A stretch of DNA of 64,000 bases from Spirulina sp. (GCA_044070495.1 JBIPSI010000017.1:67094-131093); one strand, 5' to 3'; shown: positions 3,792-57,201, counted from the stretch's first letter. Notes: generated by a model from the sequence alone, not told the origin. Made by a program: numbers and translations.

Positions 3792-3876
3792 CCCATCTTT
3801 TGCTGTGAGTACTTTTTCTTCCCCCGTTTCCCCTCGATCTAGGGTCGCTACGCTGGCTCTCTCCCCCTTTGTGGCC

Positions 3877-40643: not shown

Positions 40644-40747
40644 TAAGATAGCAAAGCGATATCCCAAGCAGATGGGCTGCCGTGGGGACTTCTCGGTGAC
40701 AGGGTCGCTTTGGTCTGGGATAAATTTTTATTTGGGAGGTACCTGCG

Positions 40748-41401: not shown

Positions 41402-41647
41402 AACCAATACTCGATGGGGATGGGCCTAATTTAGTGCCGAAACGCCCAGCCATGGCTGAGTTTTAGCCTGAGACTGCCGATTCCCAAATCCGGCTAACGG
41501 TAGGGACGAAGTCTCCTTGGCCATACCCAGATGGCCAAGTGTAACAGCAGGTTACTCGTGGGGGTGGGGTGATCGTTTATCCGGAGGATTGCGGAATACT
41601 GACAACGAAGCCTACACCTTTGCCCCCGCAAACTTGGGTTTTGCCCT

Positions 41648-43120
41648 ATGGATTGTCACCGTGCCGCACCCGCTGTGTTTAAGCATCGGCCCCACCTTCG
41701 CCGCGAACGCTTTCAAGACCTCCGTGCCCCCCGTCGGCTGCGCCTGCGGGATGCCCTGACCTGGTCTAGCCAGCGAGGACTGATGCTGATGGCGGGGGAT
41801 ATCCTTGCCCTGGCCTTGTCTTGGCACTTGGCGCGGTCGTTGAATCAGCTATTTTCGCCCATTCCGCCGCAGTTGGTGTGGTGGACGTGGCTGGGGTTGC
41901 CCAGCCTGTTTTGGGTGATGATCGCCTGCACCCTGGCGCTGTTTACCTCGGCAGGATTGTACCGATCCACCCACCACATCAAAAACTACCTCCAGGCGGG
42001 CAAACTGGTGAGCGCCATCTACCTAGCCTCCCTGGTGGTGATGTATTTCTACGACCCCAAGCTAGACCTGCCCCGATCTCTATTTTTCTCCGCTTGGATC
42101 AGCAGCGTTGGCTTTGTAGTGATAGCCCGTGTTGTGATGACCCTGGCCCTGCGACCGCTAGAAAGGCTGCACACCCCGGCCCGGGTCTTCCTGATTGCTC
42201 CGGCCCAGCGGCTGAAGCGGTTAGCGGATATTTTGGATCAGCGGGCCAAGGTGCCTGTGATTGGGGCCGCCCTGGCGTCTACGGCAAACTCAAACACCAC
42301 CTACCAGGCCATTCTGGCCTCCAAGGCCACCCTGGTACTGGCGGAAAGCATTCCCTCCGCCGACCTCGCCTCAGAACTGTATTGGAAACTGCGGCGGGCG
42401 GGCATTTCCATGCAGCTTCTCCCCACCAGCCGAGACATGCTGTACCGCCGAGGCCAGCCCGAAACCGTGGCTGGATTGCCCACCCTGCGCCTCGATGCGC
42501 CTCTAGTGGGCGGTTGGGATTACCGCGTCAAGCGCTGGATGGACTACCTGGGGGCGGGACTGGGCCTGTTGCTGTTGGCCCCCGTGTTCTTCGCCATTGC
42601 TGTGGCCATTCGCCTAGACTCTCCTGGCCCTATATTCTTCCGTCAGGAACGGGTGGGACTCCACGGCAAGCTGTTCCAGGTTTGGAAGTTCCGCACCATG
42701 GCCGCCGATGCCCCCCAGCGCCAAGCCCAGCTTGAACAACAAAACGAAACCGCTGACGGCATTCTATTTAAGGTGAAGCACGACCCCAGGGTAACGCGGG
42801 TGGGATCCCTGCTGCGACGCACCAGCCTAGACGAACTACCTCAGTTGTTCAACGTTCTCTGCGGCCAAATGAGCCTGGTTGGCCCCCGACCTCTACCCGT
42901 GCGCGATGTGGCCAAATTTGACGGTTGGCACAACATCCGTCATCAAGTCTTACCGGGGGTGACTGGGCTGTGGCAGATTTCGGGCCGCTCCGACATTGAC
43001 ACCTTCGACGATGTCGCCCGCCTCGACCTCCACTACATCGACAACTGGTCGCTTAACCTCGACCTAGCCATCCTGGCGGAAACCGTCGGTATTGTCTTCC
43101 TTGGCAAAGGGGCCTACTGA
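41648..43120 (+). CDS. Undecaprenyl-phosphate sugar phosphotransferase (WcaJ/CpsE family)
   Basis: KFRTM, DPRVTRVG, SLDELPQLFNVL.GQMSLVGPRP, PGVTGLWQ, DLHYIDNWS. Confidence 0.93.
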   Translation: MDCHRAAPAVFKHRPHLRRERFQDLRAPRRLRLRDALTWSSQRGLMLMAGDILALALSWHLARSLNQLFSPIPPQLVWWTWLGLPSLFWVMIACTLALFTSAGLYRSTHHIKNYLQAGKLVSAIYLASLVVMYFYDPKLDLPRSLFFSAWISSVGFVVIARVVMTLALRPLERLHTPARVFLIAPAQRLKRLADILDQRAKVPVIGAALASTANSNTTYQAILASKATLVLAESIPSADLASELYWKLRRAGISMQLLPTSRDMLYRRGQPETVAGLPTLRLDAPLVGGWDYRVKRWMDYLGAGLGLLLLAPVFFAIAVAIRLDSPGPIFFRQERVGLHGKLFQVWKFRTMAADAPQRQAQLEQQNETADGILFKVKHDPRVTRVGSLLRRTSLDELPQLFNVLCGQMSLVGPRPLPVRDVAKFDGWHNIRHQVLPGVTGLWQISGRSDIDTFDDVARLDLHYIDNWSLNLDLAILAETVGIVFLGKGAY

Positions 43121-43211
43121 GTCGAGTTGATCACACTCGCCCAGTTCTGTCTATTCTGATCTAACCAAGCTGGATCTAACCAAGCTGGCCCAGTCCACCG
43201 ATCAACCCTGC

Positions 43212-43346
43212 TTAAGCCAGGGCTTGGGGGCCTTCGGTAGCGCTCACTTCCTGGGCAGAGCGCTCTAACATCGTGGCACGGCGCTGTTGCTGTTGTTGGC
43301 GGGTGCGGACGACAAGGCGACGGGCAGCATCTTGGGTGAAATTCAT
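43212..43346 (-). CDS. 44-aa GifA/IF7-like glutamine synthetase inactivating factor (not in ORF track)
   Basis: MNFTQDAARRLVVRTRQQQQQRRATMLERSAQEVSATEGPQALA*; resembles the IF7 core (AR.L..R......R...ML.R.A.E); AGGAG SD. Confidence 0.7.
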   Translation of the reverse strand: MNFTQDAARRLVVRTRQQQQQRRATMLERSAQEVSATEGPQALA

Positions 43347-43363
43347 AGTGATCTCCTAAAAAC

Positions 43364-43379
43364 TGTGCTCAAAGTTACA
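43364..43379. promoter_or_regulatory. NtcA-like site downstream of a -10 box, in a repressor position
   Basis: TGTG-N8-TACA (one mismatch to TGTA-N8-TACA); minus-strand TACAAT at 43395-43390. Confidence 0.55.
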
Positions 43380-43586
43380 GAATGACCCTATTGTAACCTG
43401 AGTTCGGGGTAAGCCGATGGAGGAAGGGCGAGGTCAAGCTTGAGAAAAGGCTGCTTGGTCTGATGGCGGTAGGCAATCAAGCCACAGACACCATGGACTA
43501 TCAAGTTGACGGGACTGCGATGCCTAGCTAACCGTACCCTACGGAGTCTTCCATTTCAGTCGCCCCACCGACTCAGGGGAGACAGA

Positions 43587-43916
43587 TTAAAGGATGCCGC
43601 TGACTAGCCATTGCCATCCCCAAAAAACGGCCATCCCACCAGCGATGGTAATCAACAGGTTGGGTTGAATCAGGGCCAGGGCTAAACAGGCCCCAGCCCC
43701 AATGAGACGAGCATTTTGCCAGCCTAGGGCCAAGCGGTCTCCATCGGGGAACAACACCGCTGGCACGACGATGGCCGTGAGCACCACCGGGGGCACGTAG
43801 GCCAAGGCCTTCACCCAGGGGGGAGGAAGCAGAATGCGCCCGCTAAAGGCCAGCAAGCTATAGCGAATGGCAAAGGTGAGTACGGCCATGGCCCCCACCA
43901 AAAGCCAATCGTTCAT
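43587..43916 (-). CDS. AzlD-family branched-chain amino acid exporter small subunit
   Basis: TFAIRY, LAYVPPVVLTAIVVP; adjacent to AzlC. Confidence 0.88.
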   Translation of the reverse strand: MNDWLLVGAMAVLTFAIRYSLLAFSGRILLPPPWVKALAYVPPVVLTAIVVPAVLFPDGDRLALGWQNARLIGAGACLALALIQPNLLITIAGGMAVFWGWQWLVSGIL

Positions 43917-43945
43917 GGCCCTACCTCCATGCCCTACCTCCATCG

Positions 43946-44647
43946 TTATCGAGACTTGCCTGGGTACACCTCAAGGCTAAACCCGGTTGCCACCCCAGCC
44001 ACGGCGGCGACCATCAACCCCAACTTGTGGGGCAAGCCGTTGGCAAACACAGCCACCAGCCCCGCGACCCCAATCGCCCCTACCATCGGCCAGCTTTTGG
44101 CGTAGGGGGTAATCATACCGATAAAGGTGGCGACCATGGCAAAATCCAGCCCCCAGGCGGCGGCATTGGGCATCAGTTGCCCCAGGGTGAGGCCCAGCAG
44201 GGTGCAGCCAACCCAGTTGAAGTACATCGTTAGCCCTGCCCCTAGGTAATACCAGTGTTTGTAAGGGCTGGGGTCGGGTTGGGCGTAGCGGCGAATGGCG
44301 ACGGCAAAGGCTTCATCGGTTAAAAGAAAGGCGATGATCCTTTGCCAGCGCGGAGAGAGCGACTGCACGTAGGGCAACAAACTGGCCGCATAGAGGAGAT
44401 GGCGCAGGTTGACCACCAGGGTTGTCAGCACAATTAGCGGTAGGGTGCTGCCCGCCGTCAACAGACCCAGGGCAATGAATTGCGACGACCCGGCAAACAC
44501 AAAGGCCGACATGCCCAGGGTGGCGCTAAAGGAAAGGCCACTGCCCTGGGCTAGGGTGCCAAAAATCAGGCCAAAGGGGATGGCTCCCACCACTAGGGGC
44601 AGAATATCGCGCGCCCCAGCCAACGCCTCTGTCTGGGGGGATGGCAT
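43946..44647 (-). CDS. AzlC-family permease
   Basis: MSAFVFAGSSQF, VNLRHLLY, LTDEAFA, GLDFAM. Confidence 0.92.
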   Translation of the reverse strand: MPSPQTEALAGARDILPLVVGAIPFGLIFGTLAQGSGLSFSATLGMSAFVFAGSSQFIALGLLTAGSTLPLIVLTTLVVNLRHLLYAASLLPYVQSLSPRWQRIIAFLLTDEAFAVAIRRYAQPDPSPYKHWYYLGAGLTMYFNWVGCTLLGLTLGQLMPNAAAWGLDFAMVATFIGMITPYAKSWPMVGAIGVAGLVAVFANGLPHKLGLMVAAVAGVATGFSLEVYPGKSR

Positions 44648-44745
44648 CGTCCCAAGGGTAGGTTGTGCCAACGGAAATCTCCTCTATCGCGGATGACTTC
44701 CCCTATTTTGAGTTAGAAGAGAGAGGAGGTATCCGAGATTTTCCC

Positions 44746-45942
44746 ATGACAGACGCTCCCCGAAACATTTGCATTCTTGGTGGCGGCTTTGGCGGCCTGT
44801 ATACGGCGCTGCGGCTGAGCCAACTGCCCTGGGAGGACAACCCACCCACCATTACTCTGGTGGATCATCGGGATCGCTTTTTGTTTTTGCCGCTACTCTA
44901 CGAACTGGTGACGGGGGAACTGGAAACCTGGGAAGTTGCCCCTCCCTACGAAGAACTGCTGGCCGGTACCCAAATTCGCTTTCGGCAGGCGGAGGTAACG
45001 GGCATTGACTTGGCCCAAAAGCAGGTCAGCCTCAGTCAAGGATCGCCCTTGAATTACGACTACCTCGTCCTCGCCCTGGGGGGCACCACGCCCATGGACA
45101 TGGCCCCCGGTGTGGCGGAGCACGCCCTCGCCTTTCGCACCCTGCAAGACGCCTATCAGTTAAAGGAACGGCTGCGGATTTTGCAGGCTTCTGAGGCCGA
45201 AAAGATCCGCGTGGCGGTGGTGGGCGGCGGCTATAGCGGTGTGGAAGTGGCCTGCAAGGTGGCCGAACACCTGGGGGAACGGGGCCGAGTGCGCCTGGTG
45301 GAACGCACGGATATGATTTTGCGGGCCTCCCCAGAGCACAACCGCCAGGTAGCCCAAAAGGTGCTCTCCGACCTAGGCGTGTGGGTGGATTTAGAAACCG
45401 CCGTAGACAACGTCACCGCCGATACCATCAGCCTCACCTTCCGTGACCAAACCGATATTCTGCCCGTGGATGTGGTGCTGTGGACCGTGGGCACCCGCGT
45501 TAACGACATCGTCGCCCACCTGCCCCTGAAGCACAACGAACGGCAGCAAGTCGTCGTGCAGCCCACCTTAGAAGCGGTGGATCACCCCGGCATCTACGCC
45601 CTAGGCGATTTGGCCGACTGCCGCGATGCCGAGGGCCAACAAATGCCCACCACCGCCCAAGTCGCTCTGCAACAAGCCGACTTTGTGGGCTGGAACATCT
45701 GGGCTGCGATGACGGATCGGCCTCAACTGCCCTTCCGCTACCGCCACCTGGGAGAGATGATCACCCTCGGCACCCACCGCGCCACCCTTACCGGGCTAGG
45801 CATTGAACTAGAGGGCGAACTGGCCCATGTGGCCCGCCGACTGGCCTACCTCTACCGCATGCCCACCCTCTCCCACCAAATCCGAGTCGGGCTAAACTGG
45901 ATGACCCAACCCCTCCGGGACGTACTGTCCTCAATTTCGTGA
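44746..45942 (+). CDS. Type II NAD(P)H:quinone oxidoreductase (NdbB-like)
   Basis: GGGFGG, FLFLPLLYE, GGGYSGVE, ALGD, TAQVALQQ. Confidence 0.85.
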   Translation: MTDAPRNICILGGGFGGLYTALRLSQLPWEDNPPTITLVDHRDRFLFLPLLYELVTGELETWEVAPPYEELLAGTQIRFRQAEVTGIDLAQKQVSLSQGSPLNYDYLVLALGGTTPMDMAPGVAEHALAFRTLQDAYQLKERLRILQASEAEKIRVAVVGGGYSGVEVACKVAEHLGERGRVRLVERTDMILRASPEHNRQVAQKVLSDLGVWVDLETAVDNVTADTISLTFRDQTDILPVDVVLWTVGTRVNDIVAHLPLKHNERQQVVVQPTLEAVDHPGIYALGDLADCRDAEGQQMPTTAQVALQQADFVGWNIWAAMTDRPQLPFRYRHLGEMITLGTHRATLTGLGIELEGELAHVARRLAYLYRMPTLSHQIRVGLNWMTQPLRDVLSSIS

Positions 45943-46012
45943 CCGTGATCCCGACCGTCCTAGCGTGACTGTCATCCTGTAGCCGTGATCCCGTGACCGT
46001 GATCCCGTGACC
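45938..46012. repeat. Degenerate tandem repeat (CGTGACCGTGATCC-like)
   Basis: Seen directly after the oxidoreductase stop. Confidence 0.65.
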
Positions 46013-46073
46013 CTATGGCCGTCATCCTGCGACGCTTATCCCATAACTTCCCTACTGTGACGATCCTCCAGCC

Positions 46074-46727
46074 ATGACCTACACCCCTCTGCCCCAAGTC
46101 ATTTTTCTCGACGCCGTTGGCACCCTCTTTGGGGTGGCGGGTAGTGTAGGAGATATTTACACCGACATCGCCCAGCGCCACGGGGTTACTGCCGATCCCC
46201 AGGTACTCAATCAAGCCTTTTTCCGTACCTTCAGCGCCGCCCCAGAAATGGCCTTCCCCGGCTGCGACCCCACCACCATTCCCCAGCGGGAATACCAGTG
46301 GTGGCGGGTGCTGGCCCAACAAACCTTCAGCAGCGCCGGGGTAATTGACCAATTCGTCGATTTCGATAGCTTCTTTGCCGACCTCTATGCCCACTTTGCC
46401 ACCGCCGCCCCCTGGAAGGTCTACCCCGATGTGCCCGTGGCCCTGCAACGCTGGCAGCGGCGCGGCATTGAGCTCGGCATTATTTCCAATTTTGATTCCC
46501 GTTTATATCGTGTCCTAGAAGCCTTGCACCTGGCCGATTTTTTTCAGTCCGTCACCATTTCCTCCGAAGTCGGAGCGGCCAAACCAAGCTCGCAAATCTT
46601 TGAGATGGCCCTGCAAAAACATCGCTGCGACCCGTCCCAAGCCTGGCACCTCGGCGACAGCGAAGAGGATGACTTCCATGGTGCCAAGGCCGCTGGCCTC
46701 TGGGGCGTTTGGCTACAGCGACCCTAG
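46074..46727 (+). CDS. HAD-IA family hydrolase
   Basis: DAVGTL, ISNFD, KP, GDS..DD..GA. Confidence 0.9.
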   Translation: MTYTPLPQVIFLDAVGTLFGVAGSVGDIYTDIAQRHGVTADPQVLNQAFFRTFSAAPEMAFPGCDPTTIPQREYQWWRVLAQQTFSSAGVIDQFVDFDSFFADLYAHFATAAPWKVYPDVPVALQRWQRRGIELGIISNFDSRLYRVLEALHLADFFQSVTISSEVGAAKPSSQIFEMALQKHRCDPSQAWHLGDSEEDDFHGAKAAGLWGVWLQRP

Positions 46728-46891
46728 GCAAACTCAGCACCCCCCAGAACCTCCACGAGACAGGCCCCCTAATGCCGTGAGGTAACATACCCTACAGGCA
46801 TTGAGGGAATATTCCCATCGCAAGCTATAGCCCTATGGGCTACTCTGAAATAAATTTCAAATAAAAAACACCTTTCGATGTCTGAAACCTA

Positions 46892-46963
<72 letters not shown>

Positions 46964-46973
46964 AAAACGTGGA

Positions 46974-47055
46974 TGGGCCGGGCTGGATTCGAACCAGCGT
47001 AGGCGTAGCCAGCGGATTTACAGTCCGCCCCCATTAACCACTCGGGCACCGACCC
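46974..47055 (-). tRNA. tRNA-Tyr(GTA)
   Basis: GGGTCGGTGCCCGAGTGGTTAATGGGGGCGGACTGTAAATCCGC...GGTTCGAATCCAGCCCGGCCCA with long variable arm. Confidence 0.97.
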
Positions 47056-47172
47056 GCCCTATCCACGGTTATACATCCTAGCATGGAAGATGACGGGTCT
47101 TTAGCAACGGGTGAGAGAATTTTGAGTATTTTTTTGGAATTTACCTAGGACATGGCTCTGGATAGGGTTTTA

Positions 47173-47334
47173 GAGTAGTCCAATTAATAAATCATCCAGG
47201 CTGGCCCTCGTCCCCCAACCCCTTCTCCCTAGGGAGAAGGGGAGCCGGATTCAGAACCCCTCTCCCTGAGGGAGAGGGGCAGGGGTGAGGGCGGATGGTT
47301 ATGACAAGTGGATAGTTATTTCCATGGAGTACTC
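47173..47334. mobile_element. 162-bp MITE-like element with TTA duplication, carrying a CCCTCTCCC-type repeat
   Basis: TTA|GAGTAGTCCA..AATAAATCATCCA ... TGGATAGTTATT..TGGAGTACTC|TTA. Confidence 0.7.
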
Positions 47335-47394
47335 TTAGCGGATCATTCTGACCCCATTCCCCTTGCGATCTGGGGTTCCCCTTGCGGTTAGGGG

Positions 47395-47793
47395 CTAGCC
47401 GCGCACCAGCCAGTGCAGCACCCAGCCCCCCACCAAACCGAGGCCCCCGTAGCGCACCGCCTGCCAGAAGGGCTCCTGCAACTGCCGCCAGCTCAGCAGA
47501 TGACTGGCTAGGCTGATCTCAAACTCGTCTACGGCCTGCTGAAGTTGGTTGAGTTCCGCTTGGGCCTCGGCCCGCTGGGTTTCCGCTTGGTCGGGAGACT
47601 CGACGATGCTTTGAAGCTGTCGAATATTGCTGATCCCCGTTTTTAGGTGGTGGATCCGGGCTTCGAGGTGGTCGGCTTGGGTGCCGAGATCGCCCAGGGT
47701 GGGGGATGGTTCCGAGGATGGCGGCTCTAGGGCTCCGCGTTGGGAATGGGGCCAGGGGCCAGGTTGATACCGTTGCCGATAACCGAACTTCAT
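47395..47793 (-). CDS. Hypothetical coiled-coil protein with C-terminal TM
   Basis: Coiled coil then FWQAVRYGGLGLVGGW tail. Confidence 0.7.
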   Translation of the reverse strand: MKFGYRQRYQPGPWPHSQRGALEPPSSEPSPTLGDLGTQADHLEARIHHLKTGISNIRQLQSIVESPDQAETQRAEAQAELNQLQQAVDEFEISLASHLLSWRQLQEPFWQAVRYGGLGLVGGWVLHWLVRG

Positions 47794-47846
47794 CGTGCAC
47801 AATGGGAAAAAGGTCTACCTTAGTTAACCCCATTGGCTGAACCCCT

Positions 47847-48197
47847 ATGACGTTTTCGAGCACGGCTAAGGCTACGCAGGCTCCCCAGACCCCAGCGGCG
47901 ATAGCGGCGTTGTCCGATCTAGAACTGGCTCAGGTGCTTGCCCAGCGATTGGCCATCAAACCCAACGACTGGCACCGACTGAATCGAAACCGCCAGGTGC
48001 GAGCCCAGGAGCAGTTGGCGGCGGCTCTCGTTTATCTGCTCAGTCAGCAACCCGACGAAGCCACGCCCAGGGTTGAGCAGGCCCTTGGGTGGCTGAACCG
48101 CAGCGTGACGGCCCCACCCTGCCCTACCCATGGTGCAGCAAAAGCCAAGCCCAAAACCCTGGATTCAGGGGAGCCCGCGCATGGGGAGTCAGCCTAG
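47847..48197 (+). CDS. Conserved cyanobacterial hypothetical protein (DUF6439-like)
   Basis: DWHRL..NR..RA.EQLAAAL and PPCPTHG motifs. Confidence 0.7.
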   Translation: MTFSSTAKATQAPQTPAAIAALSDLELAQVLAQRLAIKPNDWHRLNRNRQVRAQEQLAAALVYLLSQQPDEATPRVEQALGWLNRSVTAPPCPTHGAAKAKPKTLDSGEPAHGESA

Positions 48198-48236
48198 GGC
48201 CGCCCAAACTGCCGCCGACCGGCCTAGATTGGGGTT

Positions 48237-49796
48237 TTAGCTCAGCTTAGTAAGGAACTTGAGCAGGCCTTGGGTGCGGGGGGTGAGCAGGGTGCGGCGG
48301 TAGGCGTCGGCGGCTTTTTTGATCGCCTCGGCCTGGGTGGGGTAGGGGTGGATGACGCCGCTGATTGCGCTGAGGCCCTGCCCGGTGGTGATGGCGAGGG
48401 TGAGTTCGCTGATCATTTCTCCGGCGTGGCGGGCGACGATGGTGGCCCCCAGAATTTGGTCGGAACCTTGTTTGTGGAGAATTTTCACAAAGCCCTCGGT
48501 TTCGCCATCGGCCAAGGCCCGATCTACGCTGGAGAAGGGAATTTTGATGGTGTCGTAGGCGATGCCCTGCCGCTGGGCTTCGTGGGCATAGAGGCCGACG
48601 TGGGCGATTTCGGGGTCGGTGTAGGTCACCCAGGGCATTACCAGGCTGCTGAGCTTGCTGCGACCGAGGCCAAAGGGGGCAAACAGGGCGTTTTTAATGA
48701 CGATCCGGGCGGCGGCATCGGCGGCGTGGGTAAACTTCCAGTCCATACAAATGTCGCCAGCGGCAAAGATGCGCGGGTTGCTGGTTTGCAGATAGTCGTT
48801 GACGATTACCCCCCGGCGGGCATCATACTCGACCCCCACCGCCTCCAAGTTGAGGCCCTCCACATTGGGCACCCGCCCCGCCCCGATCAGAATGTCGTCT
48901 ACTTCGATGGATTGGGCCTCTGCCGAAGTTCCCTTTGGACGGTAGTAAAGGCGCTTACCCGTTGGGGTAGCTTCGACCCGATCCAACTCCACATCCAGTA
49001 GCAGGTTGATGGCTTCTTGGCGGAACCGTTGTTGGACGATCTCCGCCGCCTCGGCCTCTTCTCGGTTGAGCAGGTGGCTGTGGTGGTGCAACAGGCTGAC
49101 CTGGCTACCCAAACGGTGGAAAGCCTGGGCCAGTTCGCAGCCGATGGGGCCACCGCCAATCACCGCTAGGCGCGGGGGCAGTTCGGTGAGGGAAAACACC
49201 GTTTCGTTGGTCAAAAATCCGGCCTCGGCCAGTCCTGGTACCGAGGGCCGATGGGCACGGGCTCCGGTGGCAATCACCGCTTTTTTGAAGGGCAGCCGCT
49301 GATCGCCCACCTGAATGGTTTCCCCATCCACAAACCGAGCGGATCCTAGAAATACGTCGATGCCCAGTTTGCTGAACCGCTCCACGGAATCGTGGTGGCT
49401 GATGCCCGCCCGAATTTGGCGCATCCGCTCCATCACCGCCGCAAAATCCACCTGCACCGACTCCGGCGGCTGAATGCCAAAGGGCGCGGCCTCCCGCATG
49501 TCCGCCACCACCCGCGACGACCGAATCACGCACTTAGAGGGCACACAGCCCACGTTCAAACAATCGCCCCCCATCAGGCTTTTTTCGATCAGGGCCACCT
49601 TTAGGCCCAAGCCTAAACCCGCCGCCCCCGCCGCCACCACCAGGCCAGCGGTACCCGCTCCAATCACCACCAGGTCGTAGCGGGGGGCTGGAGTAGGGTT
49701 CGCCCAATGGGCGGGATGGACGGCATCGCGCAGGGTTTGGTTATACCGATCCAACGGCAGCAGGGCGGGTTCGATATCAAAGGAATGGGCAGTCAT
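48237..49796 (-). CDS. Pyridine nucleotide-disulfide oxidoreductase ('mercuric reductase'-like)
   Basis: GAGTAG, GGDCLNVGCVPSK, GGGPIG, HPYPTQAE; no C-terminal Cys-Cys. Confidence 0.88.
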   Translation of the reverse strand: MTAHSFDIEPALLPLDRYNQTLRDAVHPAHWANPTPAPRYDLVVIGAGTAGLVVAAGAAGLGLGLKVALIEKSLMGGDCLNVGCVPSKCVIRSSRVVADMREAAPFGIQPPESVQVDFAAVMERMRQIRAGISHHDSVERFSKLGIDVFLGSARFVDGETIQVGDQRLPFKKAVIATGARAHRPSVPGLAEAGFLTNETVFSLTELPPRLAVIGGGPIGCELAQAFHRLGSQVSLLHHHSHLLNREEAEAAEIVQQRFRQEAINLLLDVELDRVEATPTGKRLYYRPKGTSAEAQSIEVDDILIGAGRVPNVEGLNLEAVGVEYDARRGVIVNDYLQTSNPRIFAAGDICMDWKFTHAADAAARIVIKNALFAPFGLGRSKLSSLVMPWVTYTDPEIAHVGLYAHEAQRQGIAYDTIKIPFSSVDRALADGETEGFVKILHKQGSDQILGATIVARHAGEMISELTLAITTGQGLSAISGVIHPYPTQAEAIKKAADAYRRTLLTPRTQGLLKFLTKLS

Positions 49797-49930
49797 AACA
49801 ACACGCTAGTAGTAAAGATCAACAGCCTCGTAGGGTGGGCACCGCCCACCATGCCAACAACATTTAGCCGACAACACTCACCTCGTCGCCCTAGGTCTAA
49901 CCCTATCCCACAGCCTTGCGACAGTCGTCC

Positions 49931-50749
49931 TCATGGCATCTCATCCCCAGCAGAAACGGGTGGCACCGTTTGCTGCAAGACCCGGTTGGCATAGCGGCTG
50001 ATCATCACCGTCACCGCAGCGGTGGCCAACAGCCCCACCCCATGCAGCCCCATCTGCAACCCCTGGGCCGAAGCCGACATGGGATGGGCGGTTTCGAGGG
50101 TGGCCACATCGCCAATTAGCGCCCCCAGGTAAACGTAGAGCACCGTACCCGGCAGCATTCCCAGGGAACCAATCAGGTAGTGGGGCAGCGAGACACGGGT
50201 GACCCCGTAGGCATAGTTCAGCAAATTAAAGGGCAGCAGGGGCGACAGGCGGGTCAGGAACACCAGCTTAGCCCCCGACTGCATCACCGCCGCATCCAAA
50301 ATTTGGAAATGACGATGGCGACGCAACCGCCGACATACCGCCCCCTTCGCCCAGTAACGACCGATGGCAAAGGCGAGGGTTGCCCCCAACAGGGCCGCCA
50401 CCGTGGCATAGACCGACCCCCAAACCACACCGTAGATCGCCCCGCCGCTGAGGGTCAGCAAGGCCCCTGGCAGCAGCAATACCGTGGCCAGGTTGTAGAT
50501 CACCACATAGCCAATCACCCCCATCATGCCCTGGGCCTGAATCCAGACTAGAACGCTACACAGGGCGCGGCAGATCAGGGCTGGACGTAGCCCCAAACCC
50601 ATCAGCAGGGCCAATCCCAGGCCCAGGCCGACATACAGCCAGAATCGGTTAGATTTCGGGGTCTTTGGGGTCAATTCTGGAATAGATTTCGGGGTGGATT
50701 CGGGGTTGGATTGCGGGGATGACCTAACCACAGCGTCCGATGCCTCCAA
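49931..50749 (-). CDS. TVP38/TMEM64 (DedA-like) membrane protein
   Basis: LPGALLTL.GG, RLSPLLPFNLLNYAYG, GMLPGT. Confidence 0.9.
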   Translation of the reverse strand: MEASDAVVRSSPQSNPESTPKSIPELTPKTPKSNRFWLYVGLGLGLALLMGLGLRPALICRALCSVLVWIQAQGMMGVIGYVVIYNLATVLLLPGALLTLSGGAIYGVVWGSVYATVAALLGATLAFAIGRYWAKGAVCRRLRRHRHFQILDAAVMQSGAKLVFLTRLSPLLPFNLLNYAYGVTRVSLPHYLIGSLGMLPGTVLYVYLGALIGDVATLETAHPMSASAQGLQMGLHGVGLLATAAVTVMISRYANRVLQQTVPPVSAGDEMP

Positions 50750-50820
50750 TGCTGTCCCTACCGTAGCTAGCTTCCCTGAGAATGGGCTGAGATCCAGCGG
50801 AAAAATTCCCTAGCCACAGT

Positions 50821-51420
50821 CTCAGGACAGGGACAAAAGTTGAAGCACCTGGTCGAACTCGGCAGACCCTAGGGCCAGATCGCAGCAGGTACGGCGAAGA
50901 AAGTCACAACCGTAGCGGAAAAGACACTTGGCCCTGCGGCCATGGGATTTGATGGCGATGGGGTGATGCTGATGGTGCCAGAGTCCGGTGAGCATGGCCC
51001 AGCAAAGGACCCATTCGTGCGGTCGAGACTCAATGTCCAGGGTTGAGGTATCTGGCTTCAACTCACCATCGACCGGGCAATATCATCGAAATCCACCGGA
51101 AACTCCCGCAAAAACTGGGTCAGACGCTTGTAGCTCGACTCCGGTTTTGCCCGATTGGCAAACACCGATGACAGCTTATCTAGGTTCACCGTCTCCACCC
51201 GGAATAGGGCCACCAGAAACAGGGCTAGAAACGTCAGACGGGCACCATGCCAGGGTAGATGAGGGCACAGGGCCGCTTGAAGTCGGTTAATCTGAGTCAT
51301 GGGGATGGCCTAGCTAAGGTTGTGCTTAATCTCTAGCTCACCTCCCTCTTCCTCAGTCTGTCAACCCCTCCACAGGGAAGGCTTTCAGCCCCTCACCCCA
51401 AGTTTTGTCCCTGTACCGTG
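50821..51420 (-). mobile_element. Internally deleted IS4-family element (~600 bp) with both TIRs
   Basis: Ends CTCAGGACAGGGACAAAA and TTTTGTCCCTGTACCGTG share a perfect 12-bp core; encloses transposase fragments. Confidence 0.75.
50822..51300 (-). pseudogene. IS4-family transposase remnant: N- and C-terminal fragments, DDE core deleted
   Basis: N-term WHGARLTFL..VNL..A..ESSYKRL (51058-51300) and C-term IKSHGRRAKCLFRYG (50822-51061) lie in different frames. Confidence 0.8.
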
Positions 51421-51608
51421 TTTCCAGTCGTATATACATTTCGACATGTTGAGCAGCATTCAGAGCAAAACCTTTGTTCAAGGATAGCCTGCTCAACAAG
51501 CTTCGTCCTATTGCTCCGATGAATCGTAGAATTGATCGACTCAGCTTTCCTTAGATGATTACACCTCAAAAAGTGTCCTCAAGGAGAGCCAAACCGACAG
51601 CAACCGCT

Positions 51609-51695
51609 GGCTAACGTTCCCAACCAGCGGCGGCAGATAACCCCGAACTCAGCATCAGCAGCTTTCGTCCGTCCGCTGCGTTGGGGGTGTTAGAC
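51609..51695 (-). other. attC recombination site (87 bp)
   Basis: Minus strand: R'' GTCTAAC..CCCAAC[G]CAGC GG[A]CGG ... CCGCC GCTGGTTGGG AAC GTTAGCC R'; two extrahelical bases. Confidence 0.85.
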
Positions 51696-51846
51696 CGTGC
51701 TTCCGCGACAAATTCACAACTTTTCTGCCACTCTCAGCTTGTTGCTTTTGCAAATCAGCAAAAAGTGCTTTTAAATTATGGTTGAATGACCGTGAATAAT
51801 CTTCACGGATTCTGTGAATTTCTTCCACAATGGCATCTTGATACAT
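51655..51846 (-). CDS. Small protein downstream of a PIN gene (putative antitoxin); C-terminus reads into attC
   Basis: MYQDAIVEEIHRIRE..FNHNLKALFADLQK; starts 2 nt after the PIN stop. Confidence 0.7.
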   Translation of the reverse strand: MYQDAIVEEIHRIREDYSRSFNHNLKALFADLQKQQAESGRKVVNLSRKHGLTPPTQRTDESC

Positions 51847-51848
51847 AG

Positions 51849-52322
51849 TTAATCTCCAAGCAGTTCATAGGGTGTACAAAGAATCGGCAACTCATACCCA
51901 GAATCGAAACTGATCTCTGCCAATTTCTTCTGAATTTGAGCATTAGCTATATGCTTGCAGTTCCATGTGAGCAAATAATCCATCCCATGAATTGTTGCGG
52001 CTGCGATGTGAACAGCGTCAACGTCGGCTTTTGCATGAAGACTGCTACGTTCCAGAAATTGCTCTGCTAAGTTAAGGACGGACTGATTCAGTTCGAGCAA
52101 TTCAAAATCACGAATAATTTCGAGTCGTTGGGCTGCGATTTGAGCATCCCCTAGGGAAGTTTCCTTCACGACTGCTTGGGAGGAGTAGAGTTGAAAGTCA
52201 CTGCGGCGCGCATCCCACCACTCCCTCGTTATCTCAATATTGGCAGCCACAACAAGATCTCTGCTGGGTCGAGCAGTCAGGTAACCTAAAATACTGGTTT
52301 CGATGTAAACCGTTTCACTCAT
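51849..52322 (-). CDS. PIN-domain (VapC-like) protein
   Basis: VYIETSI, DAVHIAAA, DYLLTWNCKHIAN, ICTPYEL-type tail. Confidence 0.85.
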   Translation of the reverse strand: MSETVYIETSILGYLTARPSRDLVVAANIEITREWWDARRSDFQLYSSQAVVKETSLGDAQIAAQRLEIIRDFELLELNQSVLNLAEQFLERSSLHAKADVDAVHIAAATIHGMDYLLTWNCKHIANAQIQKKLAEISFDSGYELPILCTPYELLGD

Positions 52323-52354
52323 GCAAAAGATAGGCGGCAACTTTTTCTATTTTA

Positions 52355-52395
52355 ATTCACACGGTTGCTCGTCCGACTCAGAGGCTATGTTAGCT
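52355..52395 (-). other. Truncated attC (left half only)
   Basis: Minus strand: AGCTAAC ATAGC CTCTGAGT CGG[A]CG...; R'' AGCTAAC is the complement of GTTAGCT at the start of this cassette; no matching L'/R' seen. Confidence 0.6.
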
Positions 52396-52440
52396 TACGT
52401 CCGCTACCCGCGAGAGGGATTGCTTAGTATTGGCTAAAGC

Positions 52441-52476
52441 TGTAGGTTAGGTTTCGTGCGCTCAACCCAATCTACA
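52441..52476. repeat. GTAG-type REP-like palindrome inside a cassette
   Basis: TGTAGGTTAGGTT TCGTGCGCTC AACCCAATCTACA. Confidence 0.6.
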
Positions 52477-52542
52477 AGATCAGCTGTCGCACTGTGAGCT
52501 ATCCAGGCTAAACTCGCTTCTGTTTCTCACGCCACCAAGCAA

Positions 52543-52773
52543 TCATTCTATGTACGCCTGAGCACCGACGGCAATTAACCCCATTTTCAGGTCTTCCGCT
52601 TCGTCGCGAGAACAACCGGCTTTTATCACAACGGCTTTGCCGGCATCACAACTTTCCACCAGAGCTTTCGACTCGCTCAAAGAATTCCCTAAGCGCTCCT
52701 TAACAAACTTAATTACCGCCAACTTCTCGTTGCCAATATCTGCCAACTTTACAACATAAGAATCTTGGGTCAT
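52543..52773 (-). CDS. Stand-alone ribosomal protein L7/L12 C-terminal-domain protein (76 aa)
   Basis: VVKLADIGNEKLAVIKFVKERLGNSLSESKALVES...VIKAGCSRDEAEDLKMGLIAVGA parallels the bL12 CTD (K..VIK.VR...GL.L.EAK.LVE...K..AE..K..L...GA); AAGGAG SD. Confidence 0.8.
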   Translation of the reverse strand: MTQDSYVVKLADIGNEKLAVIKFVKERLGNSLSESKALVESCDAGKAVVIKAGCSRDEAEDLKMGLIAVGAQAYIE

Positions 52774-53027
52774 ACGAAATCTCCTTAAATAGTAATCAGC
52801 ATCGTAGCAACTTTTGCACTCCGTAGGGCAGGTTTCCTTATTTCCCACTCTCCTGGTTGCTTTCAGCAACACCGATTACCCCTTGCTACTGCCCTTACCG
52901 TCAACCTTCCGGTTGCTTTCGCCACCACAACTGAAGCTGCAACCACTGCCTAAACAGACCATTTCCTGGGCATTTTCGGACTGACCCAAAATCTCACAAA
53001 ACGAGTGCAATGATTTTGTGTGGAGCC

Positions 53028-53112
53028 AGCTAACTTGAAGCTGAGCGGCGGCCAATATTTTTGCATCAACACCTAGATTATTTATGCTGTCCGCTCCTAC
53101 GTAGGGTTAGGC
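53028..53112 (-). other. attC recombination site (85 bp)
   Basis: Minus strand: GCCTAAC CCTAC GTAGGAGC GG[A]CAGC ... GCCGCC GCTCAGC TTCAA GTTAGCT. Confidence 0.82.
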
Positions 53113-53226
53113 GGCAAAGCCAAGAGCATGGTTCCTCTCAGGGCTATGTTAGGTTTCCATCGATCGCTTCCAGGAATTCCTGGGCTATGATCTGGCGTGC
53201 CCGACACCGTAAAATGTTAAGCCCAT

Positions 53227-53979
53227 TTACCAATTTTCGTCGTAAGTTATATCAACCTTTAAAGTGTCTAGAAGGTCTAGATATTCTTTCCCCTCAGGCG
53301 TAACTGAGAAAGCCTCAGCCAAATCTTTCTTATCTACCAACCTTAACTCCTCAAAGAAATCTCTGATACTAGACTTCCTCTTAAGGAAGCGAACCGCATA
53401 AAGATGTCTCATCTCTTTTTCAAGATAGTCAATCCATTCACTACTAACCCAATAAGGTATATTTTCATCTTCGCATTTCTTTAACCCTCTTAAATGTTTT
53501 GCCTCAAATTGATCAAGCAAACCCCGAAGAGCTAATTTCAGCCCTAAGTCATGTTGTTTTTGCAAATGGGCAATTTCTTTTTGTTGCTTGTCCAGAATTT
53601 CAAGCTGCTTTTGCTGAAATGAATCGATTTCCTCCTGCTGCTTATCTTGTATATTCTCTAGATTTTTAAATTTTGCCGCTATCTTTGTACCGTCAATAGT
53701 AAAATCCTCTAGCTTCTCAAGAATCCCTGAATTAAAGAATAAGACAATAGCAAGAACTATAATTTCTGTATTATCAATTCTATTGACCTTAAATTTACTA
53801 TTTTCAGGAAGAACCATGACAGCAAGCAAGTAGAAAATACCTAACATGGTGACAGTTTTAGACAGCCACCAGCTCATTGATCTCTTACTATTTTGAGGAT
53901 TAATCACAATCTGACTTGATGGATTTACATAAGATGAGTTAGTGAGTTTTTCATGTTGGCTTTTCTCTTGTTCTGACAT
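53227..53979 (-). CDS. AT-rich hypothetical protein: 2 TM + coiled coil + possible C-terminal winged helix
   Basis: 250-aa ORF, strongly AT-rich relative to the flanks, filling one cassette. Confidence 0.8.
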   Translation of the reverse strand: MSEQEKSQHEKLTNSSYVNPSSQIVINPQNSKRSMSWWLSKTVTMLGIFYLLAVMVLPENSKFKVNRIDNTEIIVLAIVLFFNSGILEKLEDFTIDGTKIAAKFKNLENIQDKQQEEIDSFQQKQLEILDKQQKEIAHLQKQHDLGLKLALRGLLDQFEAKHLRGLKKCEDENIPYWVSSEWIDYLEKEMRHLYAVRFLKRKSSIRDFFEELRLVDKKDLAEAFSVTPEGKEYLDLLDTLKVDITYDENW

Positions 53980-54083
53980 GGCTATTGTTCTTCCTATTCA
54001 AAAAATATTTTTCAAAAGAGAACTATATTCAAACATGCAAGAATTAAGATTCAGTGAGCAGCTCTTACTCGGAGTTTTTTTCG

Positions 54084-54171
54084 GCCTAACGTTCCGCTTT
54101 ACCCGCCGTAGATAACCTCTCGATTCAAGGGAATAACCTCGCGGCGGTCGGGTGCAAGCGGGTTGTTATGC
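54084..54171 (-). other. attC recombination site (88 bp)
   Basis: Minus strand: GCATAAC AACCC GCTT[G]CAC CCG[A]CCG ... CGGCGG GTAAAGC GGAAC GTTAGGC; the upstream gene's TAA lies inside R''. Confidence 0.88.
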
Positions 54172-54411
54172 TGGCGGCAACTGGTCATACGACTCTGGCT
54201 CAACATCAGCGACTTTGGCTAACACAGCCTCATATTTTGCTCGATCACCCCGGCTGGCGCGCTCCTGCAAATACCCTTCGGTCGTTAATGCTGAAATTTT
54301 CTCGGCAACTGCTAGGGCGATAAACTGGTCGAGCGAAACCCCGTCCTGCGCTGCAAGGCTCTGCAAGCTTTTATATAAAGAGTCGGGTAGCTGGATGCTT
54401 AACGTGCTCAT
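54166..54411 (-). CDS. HicB-like / ribbon-helix-helix antitoxin
   Basis: LSIQLPDSLYKSL..LA..DGVSLDQFIALAVAEK; ATGA overlap with the PIN gene. Confidence 0.85.
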   Translation of the reverse strand: MSTLSIQLPDSLYKSLQSLAAQDGVSLDQFIALAVAEKISALTTEGYLQERASRGDRAKYEAVLAKVADVEPESYDQLPPA

Positions 54412-54836
54412 GATAGTCCTCCAATAGACTCCAGGAAACTGGCCGGGGTAACGGCACTAACCCCAAATCGCTCAATGCCTGCAAAATCGCGGATATTGTA
54501 TGTCACTACGCTATCACACCCCGCTTTAACCGCTAGTTCTAGCACCATGTCATCCTTTGGGTCGGGCAAGAAAGGTCGCCAAAGGAAGAAAATCTGATGA
54601 TGGGTCGCAACAGCGCAGTGAAAATCCAAGAAATCCTGTACATCTGAGTCATTAATCGCTAGATTCGGCAGTTCCCGCAATAAAACCTCTTCATACTCCA
54701 GAACTAGCGGTACAGAAAGATTGATCTTAAACCGCTCGCTGCCAACTAGCCCTAGTAGACGAAAAGCACTCCCGTTTCTAGAACGTAGCCCAGCAATAAC
54801 GACATTGGTGTCGATCACAATTTGGGGGATGGGCAT
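54408..54836 (-). CDS. PIN-family toxin
   Basis: IVIDTNVVIAG, LEYEEVL, DPKDDMVLELA, VTYNIRDF. Confidence 0.9.
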   Translation of the reverse strand: MPIPQIVIDTNVVIAGLRSRNGSAFRLLGLVGSERFKINLSVPLVLEYEEVLLRELPNLAINDSDVQDFLDFHCAVATHHQIFFLWRPFLPDPKDDMVLELAVKAGCDSVVTYNIRDFAGIERFGVSAVTPASFLESIGGLS

Positions 54837-54958
54837 TGGCGGCAGCACCGAGGCGTTTATTGGTAACCCACCAATGTTACCGCCTACCCAGATCCTTGCC
54901 GAGGTAGTTTTTTATACAAGGCATCTTTACTTGGATTGCCCCCGCCACAGAATAGTCG

Positions 54959-55043
54959 GCATAATGACGAAGTTGAGCCGCGAACGCCGCTTAGCCAGCG
55001 TCGTCGGGCTAACGCGTTCGTCGGCTCCAACGAAGAGTTGGTG
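54959..55043 (-). other. attC recombination site (85 bp), R' core ATT instead of GTT
   Basis: Minus strand: CACCAAC TCTTC GTTG[G]AGC CG[A]CGAACGC ... GCGTTCGCG GCTCAAC TTCGTC ATTATGC. Confidence 0.85.
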
Positions 55044-55091
55044 TGCCTGGTAAGTGGACTTAGTGTTCCCAACCAGTAACATTTCTACCAG

Positions 55092-55252
55092 GCAGAACAA
55101 CTACTTGTTAGAGGGAAACTTTCTGCCTAACATCCTTATACGGGATCTTAGGTGGAAATCTGTCAGCCTAAATACCCCTGTGGGGATCTTAGGTGGAAAA
55201 AATCAGCCTAAGCGCCGAATATGGGATCTTAGGTAGAAAAAATCATCATAAA
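55092..55252. repeat. Four 25-26 bp quasi-palindromes with 15-bp spacers (candidate attI-like platform)
   Basis: Units at 55107-55131, 55147-55172, 55188-55212 and 55228-55252 (STTAGRKRGAAA..TCWGCCTAA); the repeat is seen directly, its function is inferred. Confidence 0.75.
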
Positions 55253-55431
55253 TATCCGGCAGCAGAGGTGCCCTGCAATTTAAAGATCCTTTATGTTCGG
55301 TGCACACTTACGGATGGATGCATTGCTTTCTCAGTCATGGCAAAGAGTTGGCCATGGGGAACGTCAGCGGCAACCACGGCTAATAAATCTAGGGTATCTA
55401 GGTGAAAAATTCGGCTGTTTGCACACGACGT

Positions 55432-57201
55432 CTATGGATTTTCTCCCGACTGCCGCTGCACCCATTGGGTCACCCCTTCGGCTAGGGTTTCGGCCAGTTG
55501 GGCTTGGGCTTGGGGGTCGGTAATCCATTCAAACTCGGTGGGGTTAATCATAAAGCCCAGTTCCAGCAGCACCGAGGGGGCCACGTGGGGGCGGGTGAGG
55601 GCGAGGTTGTTCCAAAACACGCCGTAGGAGGGGCGATCTAGCTCGGTGACGAGGTGGTCGTGGAGGAATTGGGCCAGATCGTGGGCCTGGGCATGGAACC
55701 AAAAGGCTCCGATGCCAGCGGTATTGAGGGCATCGCCGCTGTCGGGCAGGGCGTTGTAGTGGATGCTGAGGGCGAGGGTGGGCTGGTCTCGGTTGATTTG
55801 GGCGGCGCGGTCGTTGGGGCCGCTGGCGGTGTCGTCGGTGCGGGTCATAATCACGGTGGCCCCCCGCCGTTCTAGGGCCGCTTGCAGGAGGAGGGATACC
55901 TCCAAATTGACGGTCTTTTCGGGGATGCCGTTGGGGCCGCGTGCCCCCAGTTCGTCGCCGCCGTGGCCGGGGTCAATCAAAATGGTGGTGCCCTGGAGGG
56001 GCAGATTACCGAGGGCAGGGGGATGTTTGAGGGCGAGGATCAGGGTGGTGCCTTCGTAGCGCAGTTGGTAGCCCCACTGCTGGTTGGTGGCGAAGTGGAA
56101 GGTGTATTCTGCTTGGTTGGGCAGGATCGGTCGCCAGTCGAGCCGCTGAATTAGCCCATCGTTGCCGACGAAGATGGTGTCGGTTTGGGGGGTGGTGTTG
56201 TGCAGGGTGAGGGTGAAGGTCTCCCCGGTTTGGTAGACACTGACGGGAACGGGCACCTGCAAGGGGAAGGAGACCTCCGTCCAGTCGCCCACTCGGCGGG
56301 AGGTAACGCCCCGAATCAGGGATTGGGGCGGGGCGGCACCGGGGATGAGTTGGGTTTCTGCCGCACGAATCCAGCCGCCATAGTCGAGCCGTAGCCAGTC
56401 GCCCTCGCGTCCAGTAATTTGGGCGCGGGTGCCCTGGGGCAGGGGCGTGAGGCGGGAATAGTCGGTGCTGGGGCCAGTGCGGGCGACTCCGGCGGCGGCG
56501 ATCACTTCGGCAACTTCAATTTGATTCGGCGCGAGGAGGATGACCTGACCGGGGGCGCTGGCGGTTTCCGTACGGCCCTGGTAAACCATGCGATAGGCGG
56601 GTTGACCCAGATTGCCCGTCCGATCCGTCGTCATACAACCCTGGTAAACCGTAGGGCCATCCAAGGCCATGGGATTGTTTTGATCAACCAAGACCGCTGC
56701 ATTGCTGGGCAGTTGGCTGGTCGTCTGAGGTAACAGCGTCAGGGATTGGTTCGCCAATTGGGCTGTCACCGTTGCCGATGCGGGGACAATGGCTGACAGA
56801 CAGATCAACTCATCGGGCTGGCGCGTCACATCCACCCTGGGCCAGAGGGAATCCACAACAAACCCCGGTGGATCGGGCAGGGTGGGGCCGCTGGGTAGCC
56901 GGGTAATGGTGAGGTCTAGGGTTTGGCCCCCTTGGGTTAGCGTGAATTGGTTGGGGCCAAGTTCCAGGGGCAGGCTGGGGGCAAAATGTCCGGCGGGGCT
57001 GCGGTCGGCAATGGGGACGCCGTTGATCAGCACAGGCTGGCTGGGGTCGGCGGTGCCAATGAAGAAAATCTGCGCCGCCGTGGTTTGGTGATCGGCGGGG
57101 GGATACACCACCTGTAAGGACGACTGCGCCAGGGCCACCTCTGCCATGCCAACCCCTGCCACCATACCCAGCGTTGTCGCCCATGTCCAAGCCACTGCCA
57201 T
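55432..57201 (-). CDS. N-acetylmuramoyl-L-alanine amidase with SH3-like domain
   Basis: Signal peptide, RTGPSTDYSRLTPL, IDPGHGG, SIHYNA, SVLLELGF. Confidence 0.92.
   Translation of the reverse strand: MAVAWTWATTLGMVAGVGMAEVALAQSSLQVVYPPADHQTTAAQIFFIGTADPSQPVLINGVPIADRSPAGHFAPSLPLELGPNQFTLTQGGQTLDLTITRLPSGPTLPDPPGFVVDSLWPRVDVTRQPDELICLSAIVPASATVTAQLANQSLTLLPQTTSQLPSNAAVLVDQNNPMALDGPTVYQGCMTTDRTGNLGQPAYRMVYQGRTETASAPGQVILLAPNQIEVAEVIAAAGVARTGPSTDYSRLTPLPQGTRAQITGREGDWLRLDYGGWIRAAETQLIPGAAPPQSLIRGVTSRRVGDWTEVSFPLQVPVPVSVYQTGETFTLTLHNTTPQTDTIFVGNDGLIQRLDWRPILPNQAEYTFHFATNQQWGYQLRYEGTTLILALKHPPALGNLPLQGTTILIDPGHGGDELGARGPNGIPEKTVNLEVSLLLQAALERRGATVIMTRTDDTASGPNDRAAQINRDQPTLALSIHYNALPDSGDALNTAGIGAFWFHAQAHDLAQFLHDHLVTELDRPSYGVFWNNLALTRPHVAPSVLLELGFMINPTEFEWITDPQAQAQLAETLAEGVTQWVQRQSGENP

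Follow-up and report, generated by a model that had tools for sequence, protein, structure and literature searches.

Why should an array of gene cassettes lie in a cyanobacterial chromosome with no integrase gene beside it? The question is raised by positions 51421-55323 of a 64,000-nucleotide stretch of a Spirulina sp. genome (GCA_044070495.1 JBIPSI010000017.1:67094-131093), the whole of which we call the window. A preliminary description, made from the sequence alone, held that IntI-type cassettes had been joined here at G|TT by an integrase since lost or acting in trans, with no recombinase nearby. The evidence supports that core reading, to which we can add an attI-like region and a stub of intI. 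We conclude that 51421-55323 is very probably a chromosomal integron platform, made up of an attI-like site and its cassettes, from which intI has been deleted.

By class, the array is a decayed chromosomal integron with an intI stub, and by definition a CALIN (cluster of attC sites lacking an integron integrase). It is a genuine gene-capture array of a filamentous cyanobacterium, in which the docking site and five captured cassettes are retained and the recombinase gene is gone. Followed down the minus strand from 55323, the order is the intI stub, the attI-like site, an open reading frame (ORF)-less mini-cassette (cassette 0), a PIN/RHH cassette, a cassette for a 250-residue protein, a cassette with a ribosomal L7/L12 C-terminal domain fused to one with a PIN-like and a 63-residue protein, the start of a sixth cassette, and the remnant of an IS4-family insertion sequence (IS). 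As expected of a CALIN, there are three strong attC sites and no intI on the 131-kb contig (C17) that carries the window. A complete integron would have an attI heading the array, and one is present as judged by homology and boundary logic alone; it would also have intI adjoining, where only ATGGATGCAT (55314-55323) is left.

The attI-like region and the remains of intI

The earlier claim that the 64 kb hold no tyrosine recombinase extends to the full length of C17, on which neither PF00589 (tyrosine recombinase) nor TIGR02249 found a match and tblastn with IntI returned nothing. The trace of a lost gene lies at the amidase end of the array. Elsewhere in the genome, on contig C33, an intact intI starts at position 338; window 54978-55258 shares 91% identity with the 282 nucleotides upstream of that gene, and on the intI side the window tracks C33 from 338 up to ATGGATGCAT and then diverges. 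Because both the attI-like region and 10 nucleotides of intI are homologous to C33, the “since lost” part of the earlier reading is shown directly, and we infer that the window platform lost its integrase gene by deletion. Another 108 nucleotides separate the stub from the end of the amidase gene.

The attI identity of 55101-55313 is proposed from homology and from the logic of cassette boundaries. Window 55095-55258 is 85-88% identical to six other copies in the genome, of which the copy at C33:118-282 sits 56 nucleotides upstream of the intact gene. When all attI-like copies are aligned, their likeness runs to ...AAC|T and then gives way to divergence, a point that corresponds to G|TT on the cassette strand; in the window, the crossover reads GTTGTTC on the minus strand. 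Further, the first cassettes of all three other platforms compared (C4, the end of C33, and genome G019) obey, from the crossover point, the rule for cassette starts described below. Three 40-bp direct repeats span 55114-55239 (TRF period 40 x 3.1 copies), each with GGGATCTTAGGT (at 55142, 55183 and 55223), and these may be accessory IntI-binding sites. The intI and cassette promoter region likely falls within 55101-55313; a promoter and terminator scan gave 2 promoter-like sites vs 4.9 in shuffles.

Amidase orthologues occur in 38 of 40 genus genomes, with the nearest in G019, G005 and G043. At its amidase locus G019 carries an amidohydrolase gene, residues 7-29 of intI as a stub, an attI-like region with 87.6% identity to that of the window and two attC sites, and none of the cassettes there is like those of the window. 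At the same locus in G005, intI codons 1-73 are followed by the contig end; in G043, no attI, intI or attC was found in the 16 kb beyond the amidase. At least three species of the genus have inherited the platform at this place beside the amidase. Like the copy at the start of C33, an attI copy elsewhere in G005 stands directly before a full-length intI (G005:C250:2640-2794; intI at 2880-3821).

In both G019 and G005, a 474-residue amidohydrolase-like gene (L033:16932-18356) separates the intI remnant from the amidase. It is absent here (compared with window 55324-55431), and therefore the deletion that removed intI probably took this gene too. The junction at which the truncated intI meets the 3' end of that gene appears to be common to G005 and G019, as read from the sequences with no formal alignment, and the present genome (G000) looks like an outgroup of those two in which that junction has been deleted.

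attC sites and cassette boundaries

Two covariance models were made for the attC sites. R1 combined the three best window sites with three BLAST look-alikes from elsewhere in the genome, and a genome search with it yielded 12 further sites on other contigs. R2 was built from 13 attC sites, all outside the window, so that the window scores are not circular. Its consensus structure has 18 pairs, 11 with compensatory changes on both sides, and 91.9% of the cells in its alignment are paired, vs 72.1% in shuffles (0 of 500 reach the observed value) and 24-41% with the partner slid. The sites, 85-88 nucleotides long, carry TAAC and GTTA cores that are invariant or nearly so, and 11 of their 14 L-box pairs covary. 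They show the features by which we recognised attC, namely inverted cores R'' (..AAC) and R' (GTT..) 55-140 nucleotides apart and paired L''/L' boxes.

The preliminary description had counted four complete sites. Three of these (51609-51695, 53028-53112 and 54084-54171) are recovered by R2 strongly, to the nucleotide and on the minus strand; the fourth, 54959-55043, is marginal, and every match after these four has E >0.3. In the marginal site, which lies in the mini-cassette, R' is ATTATGC rather than a GTT core, giving an A|TT joint, and R'' (CACCAAC) agrees with the cassette start at 5 of 7 positions. The extrahelical bases had been said to lie on one arm; the unpaired columns of the consensus are mainly on the R''-L'' arm (17, 20-21 and 25), with column 71 on the other. 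Over 50500-55600, no Rfam family matched at E up to 1. Scanning the genome naively for AAC...GTT hairpins returned 571 candidates, mostly spurious, and was abandoned.

The cassette boundaries show that an IntI-type tyrosine recombinase put every cassette in place as a circle, joined at (G/A)|TT, and it follows from this manner of insertion that the start of each cassette is complementary to its own R''. As had been described, the three testable cassettes of the window all conform exactly at the computed coordinates (TTATGC/GCATAAC, TTAGGC/GCCTAAC and TTAGCT/AGCTAAC); with TTA/TAA fixed, the chance of three exact matches of three variable bases is ~(1/64)^3. The rule is also obeyed in seven of eight further cassettes (C4, the end of C33, two in G019, three in C39 and one of two in C23), or 10 of 11 overall. 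Two other details of the earlier account are borne out: every cargo ORF is on the minus strand, as are all family-matched frames of at least 60 residues between 51655 and 54848, and the TAA stop codon of the RHH-like ORF falls within R'' 54165-54171.

Likeness between genomes also stops at the crossover points, in the cassette 4 loci fetched and in several matches to cassette 1; homologues of cassette 4 occur in several of the genus genomes. Homologues of cassette 1 (at least 600 nucleotides, 84-95% identity) are present in 13 of 52 other genus genomes, with similarity ending at 54964 in six and at 54084-54087 in seven. In G024, such a homologue stands among attC matches ~3 kb from a full-length intI. 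All five cassette 4 homologues that were fetched (87-92% identity) lose similarity right after GTTA/GTTG. Metagenome contigs cover both cassettes and diverge from the window at 51609-51612 and 54962-54982. At most a fraction of 0.13 of the sampled words occurs in any public run, all of the runs being kept as contigs; cassettes 2 and 3 are uncovered in the four runs examined, which is uninformative either way.

The homologues of cassette 4 also clarify the middle of the array. In four of the five, similarity spans 52381 to ~51612, and there the cassette extends upstream of the point matching 52381; therefore a deletion took most of the attC of cassette 3 together with the 5' end of cassette 4, and the two are now movable only together. 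The half site that had been placed at ~52355-52395 does not survive this comparison: only R'' (52389-52395) and ~6 nucleotides are left of it, and from 52382 down the sequence belongs to cassette 4. For the same reason, a reading that made 52355-52381 the L'' box of a shortened attC was rejected.

This attC family has fourteen other members in the genome (R2, E 1e-7 or better), at C39:58-8958, C23:58-2230, C25:2438-2523, C33:59020-59103, C27:56455-56543, C8:74183-74268, C4:198567-198653 and C26:74825-74911. One identical site lies at three contig ends (C39, C23 and C33), and arrays have therefore been split by the assembly.

Table 1. Features of the array and its distal end (window coordinates; bit scores and E-values for attC sites are from R2 unless stated)
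Feature	Position	Strand	Description
intI stub	55314-55323	plus	ATGGATGCAT, start codon + 7 nt; similarity to C33 intI stops here
attI-like region	55101-55313	.	Strand unassigned; homology to C33 sequence upstream of intact intI; crossover G55101|T55100
Cassette 0	54965-55100	minus	136-nt ORF-less mini-cassette; starts TTGTTC, ends A (joint A|TT)
Marginal attC-like site	54959-55043	minus	22.9 bits, E 0.003; R1 10.2 bits, E 3.8
Cassette 1	54090-54964	minus	875 nt; PIN_3 toxin-like and RHH antitoxin-like ORFs; attC 54084-54171
PIN_3 toxin-like ORF	54408-54848	minus	Pfam PIN_3 70.2 bits
RHH antitoxin-like ORF	54166-54411	minus	81 aa; RHH families below cut-offs
attC	54084-54171	minus	72.6 bits, E 6.2e-16; R'' GCATAAC, R' GTTAGGC
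Cassette 2	53034-54089	minus	1056 nt; starts TTAGGC; attC 53028-53112
ORF of no known family	53227-53979	minus	250 aa; no Pfam, NCBIfam or PADLOC match
attC	53028-53112	minus	36.2 bits, E 1.1e-6; R'' GCCTAAC, R' GTTAGCT
Cassette 3	52383-53033	minus	Starts TTAGCT; R'' AGCTAAC 52389-52395 and ~6 nt left of attC
Ribosomal L7/L12 C-terminal-domain ORF	52543-52872	minus	Pfam Ribosomal_L12 51.9 bits
Cassette 4, 5' end lost	51615-52382	minus	PIN-like and 63-aa ORFs; attC 51609-51695
PIN-like ORF	51849-52340	minus	163 aa; PIN 18.3 bits, weak, below cut-off
63-aa ORF	51655-51846	minus	In cassette 4, after PIN-like ORF
attC	51609-51695	minus	81.5 bits, E 3.4e-18; R'' GTCTAAC, R' GTTAGCC
Further (sixth) cassette start, truncated	51421-51614	minus	TTAGCC... 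after last G|TT; ~190 nt left
IS4-family transposase remnant	50822-51420	minus	Multi-copy repeat ending array; NF033591 27.3 bits, below cut-off, 50822-51061

The remaining integrase, the mini-cassette and rival explanations

An important question is whether anything in the cell can still move these cassettes. A search of the whole genome for an IntI with the integron-specific segment, as the preliminary description had proposed, found one, the 323-residue open frame at C33:338-1306, which is the sole full-length IntI of the genome. It scores 466.7 bits with TIGR02249 (cut-off 265) and aligns over its full length with VchIntIA (PDB 2a3v; E 5e-93). In that alignment there is no gap over residues 190-240, the integron-specific segment between patches II and III, and the HxxRH and tyrosine-region motifs are conserved. 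Its nearest named relatives belong to Leptolyngbya (sp. PCC 7375, 84%), Phormidesmis and Nodosilinea; other named ones come from Chloroflexota. Because the genome encodes this protein, action in trans on the window array is possible; we put the chances that it does so act at about even.

The attI-like region exists in seven places: the window, C33:1-340, C60:1-700, C43:4095-4338, C4:183571-183756, C53:19247-19106 and C33:57100-56940. A full intI follows only the copy at the start of C33. Decayed 5' ends of the gene are kept at C60, C43 and C53, and remnants are found at C60 (residues 1-91 and 303-323), at C23 and at each end of C28. Many contigs break at attI-like repeats. Other genomes have a similar organization: all five genus genomes sampled hold 8-21 attC matches and 1-7 attI-like matches, scattered, and thus small dispersed platforms seem to be the rule, not one large array. 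IntI exceeds the family cut-off in 21 of the 41 genomes searched, which include the present one and are drawn from the genus and from other cyanobacterial families. In G019 (98% complete; 14 attC and 7 attI-like matches), nothing matched IntI at E 1e-10 or better, and this genome may have platforms only, without any integrase.

The mini-cassette offers a possible sign of movement. It is found with 100% identity at C25:2-139, C33:1-123 and C60:1-123, and with 92.6% identity in C43, and the attI regions beside the identical copies have only ~85% identity (window vs C33 or C60). The identity steps sharply at both crossover points, which we read as site-specific copying of the mini-cassette. Among the other genus genomes it is matched only in G007 (82%), and a DNA search gave no match in G019, G005 or G043. 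As DNA it folds at -31.3 kcal/mol (z -4.7); no sigma-70 promoter match lies on its cassette strand. We suggest, tentatively, that the one intact IntI serves roughly seven scattered attI platforms, the integrase-less window included, and that the A|TT mini-cassette, copied into the first position of at least three of them, is its trace. If true, an orphan attI would here have been loaded in trans in nature, and an “empty” cassette, selfish or regulatory, would be spreading inside a single genome. A metagenome contig from alkaline sediment (run X1 record 6, an RNA library) holds window 54962-55098 without a difference and has a different neighbour from 54962.

Taken together, a mechanism can be proposed in which the integrase gene of the window platform was deleted and the attI-like site and cassettes were left behind. 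The C33 IntI would still excise and insert cassettes there in trans, and two toxin-antitoxin cassettes would help to keep the array from deletion, which they may thereby stabilise.

Several results weigh against this account of the array. Cassettes 3 and 4 are deletion-fused, an IS cuts into the distal end, and the joint of the mini-cassette is A|TT, not G|TT; all are signs of decay. Recombination was not observed, the public runs having been examined as assembled contigs. Folding of the bottom (plus) strands, a check suggested by the preliminary description, favoured only two sites over shuffles: 54950-55050 (z -3.79) and 51600-51705 (z -2.21) did better, but 54075-54180 (z -0.57) and 53020-53120 (z +0.60), which hold attC sites 54084-54171 and 53028-53112, did not. 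Support for attC therefore comes from covariation, not from folding energy. The extrahelical bases of canonical attC sites are G and T, and the bulged bases of the bottom strand here would be C and T. Membership in the attC family rests on R1 and R2, models made in this analysis. Finally, no sigma-70 consensus facing the cassettes was found on the minus strand over 54965-55330, in a scan not covering all cyanobacterial promoter types.

One alternative is that the array is a fossil, its cassettes relics that no integrase moves and that are kept only by vertical descent and toxin-antitoxin addiction. The deletion of intI at the window, the fused cassettes, the IS-cut end, the A|TT joint and the lack of a full intI at six of seven attI copies all agree with such a history. 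We nevertheless consider it unlikely, given that one IntI is full length with its HxxRH and tyrosine-region motifs conserved, and that a mini-cassette that is 100% identical beside three attI only ~85% alike, and not found in three related genomes, points to recent site-specific copying. It is far less probable still that the array is a bare CALIN, with cassettes inserted at a secondary non-attI site or split off by rearrangement and no platform sequence present. No intI lies within 64 kb, and, according to PMC4889954, roughly half of CALIN elements are in replicons that encode IntI elsewhere; but an attI-like region and an intI stub adjoin this array, and at the amidase locus of two sister species this platform recurs with longer remnants of intI. 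That the palindromes are not integron sites at all, and instead belong to a dispersed cyanobacterial repeat (a repetitive extragenic palindrome, REP, or a miniature inverted-repeat transposable element, MITE) that fell between genes by chance, is scarcely credible. The sites are indeed spread over many contigs, and two of the four fold no better than shuffles; yet their AAC...GTT cores are invariant and their stems covary, they show linkage to intI and attI, inter-genome similarity stops at G|TT, and the rule for cassette starts holds in all but one of the cassettes examined.

A decayed integron platform is also in keeping with what has been described elsewhere. Integrons are on record in Cyanobacteria (PMC4889954, PMC8618304), and the setting is therefore not unusual; a phrase search of the literature for cyanobacterial integrons gave no occurrence among the papers listed, which is not proof of absence in print. 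Established concepts include CALIN elements, intI pseudogenes and mobilisation in trans (PMC4889954, PMC12444791). The loss of intI from a platform is a known and fairly common kind of integron decay. The closest likeness in Cury et al. 2016 (PMC4889954) is to a CALIN with a neighbouring intI pseudogene, in that there are at least two attC sites, no functional intI nearby, an adjoining intI remnant and an IntI elsewhere in the genome. Unlike the intI pseudogenes of that study, for which >50% of the profile had to be covered, the remnant in the window is 10 nucleotides long, and the attI-like region is intact. Since 10 nucleotides fall far below that criterion, an automatic scan would call the locus a plain CALIN.

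The chromosomal integrons of Xanthomonas (PMC12444791) resemble this system in having one inherited locus, lineage-specific truncation or deletion of intI, and cassettes that differ between species; they differ in occupying one platform downstream of ilvD, whereas here there are about seven attI copies and a single intact intI. With the sedentary chromosomal integron of Vibrio cholerae (PMC13108822), the genome shares the IntI architecture, attC sites that are homogeneous within the genome, and toxin-antitoxin cassettes; in place of one array of >100 cassettes, it has small scattered arrays of 1-5 cassettes each, and the intI beside the window array is gone. Cassette 0 is comparable to the ORF-less cassettes of PMC12444791, being little more than a recombination site, but it has an A|TT joint and identical copies that come first in several platforms. 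Only two traits are less usual, namely that attI platforms are scattered in many copies and that the mini-cassette is identical between several of them. The locus adds a well-delimited case of integron decay in a filamentous cyanobacterium, and indicates that an array that automatic tools would label a plain CALIN can retain a complete attI.

Cassette cargo and flanks

The cargo is ordinary: besides two toxin-antitoxin pairs there are an L12-domain protein and a protein of no known family. PADLOC returned nothing for the six cassette proteins, and no resistance or defence families were matched among the cargo. Cassette 2 has no DNA match in 52 other genus genomes, and cassette 3 has no DNA homologue in 52 genus genomes except one 110-nucleotide match in G006. 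The small protein borne by cassette 3 is essentially a stand-alone ribosomal L7/L12 C-terminal domain. Paralogues of the PIN-like and 63-residue module of cassette 4 are present at C28:54356-54971 and C14:123693-124300 (78% and 67% nucleotide identity), with no attC detected there.

At its distal end the array stops within the sixth cassette, which is cut at 51420 by the IS4 repeat. This remnant has several copies in G000, G019, G005 and G043. The preliminary description had given the flanks as an amidase and a TVP38 gene. The amidase is indeed next to the platform; on the other side, the IS4 remnant cuts the distal end, and the amidohydrolase gene of the two relatives is missing between platform and amidase. 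The comparison of the amidase-TVP38 interval proposed at that time succeeded on the amidase side, where G019 has other cassettes, but the TVP38 side is not syntenic in G019, G005 or G043. The genes of 40000-51600 are scattered in these three genomes, and the interval is therefore not comparable as a unit; the best matches of the TVP38 gene (64-69%) are in genomes other than the closest amidase relatives. Farther out, window 47160-47340 contains a stretch of ~170 nucleotides with dozens of copies, 75-95% identical, in G019, G005 and G043, apparently a short dispersed repeat and possibly a MITE.

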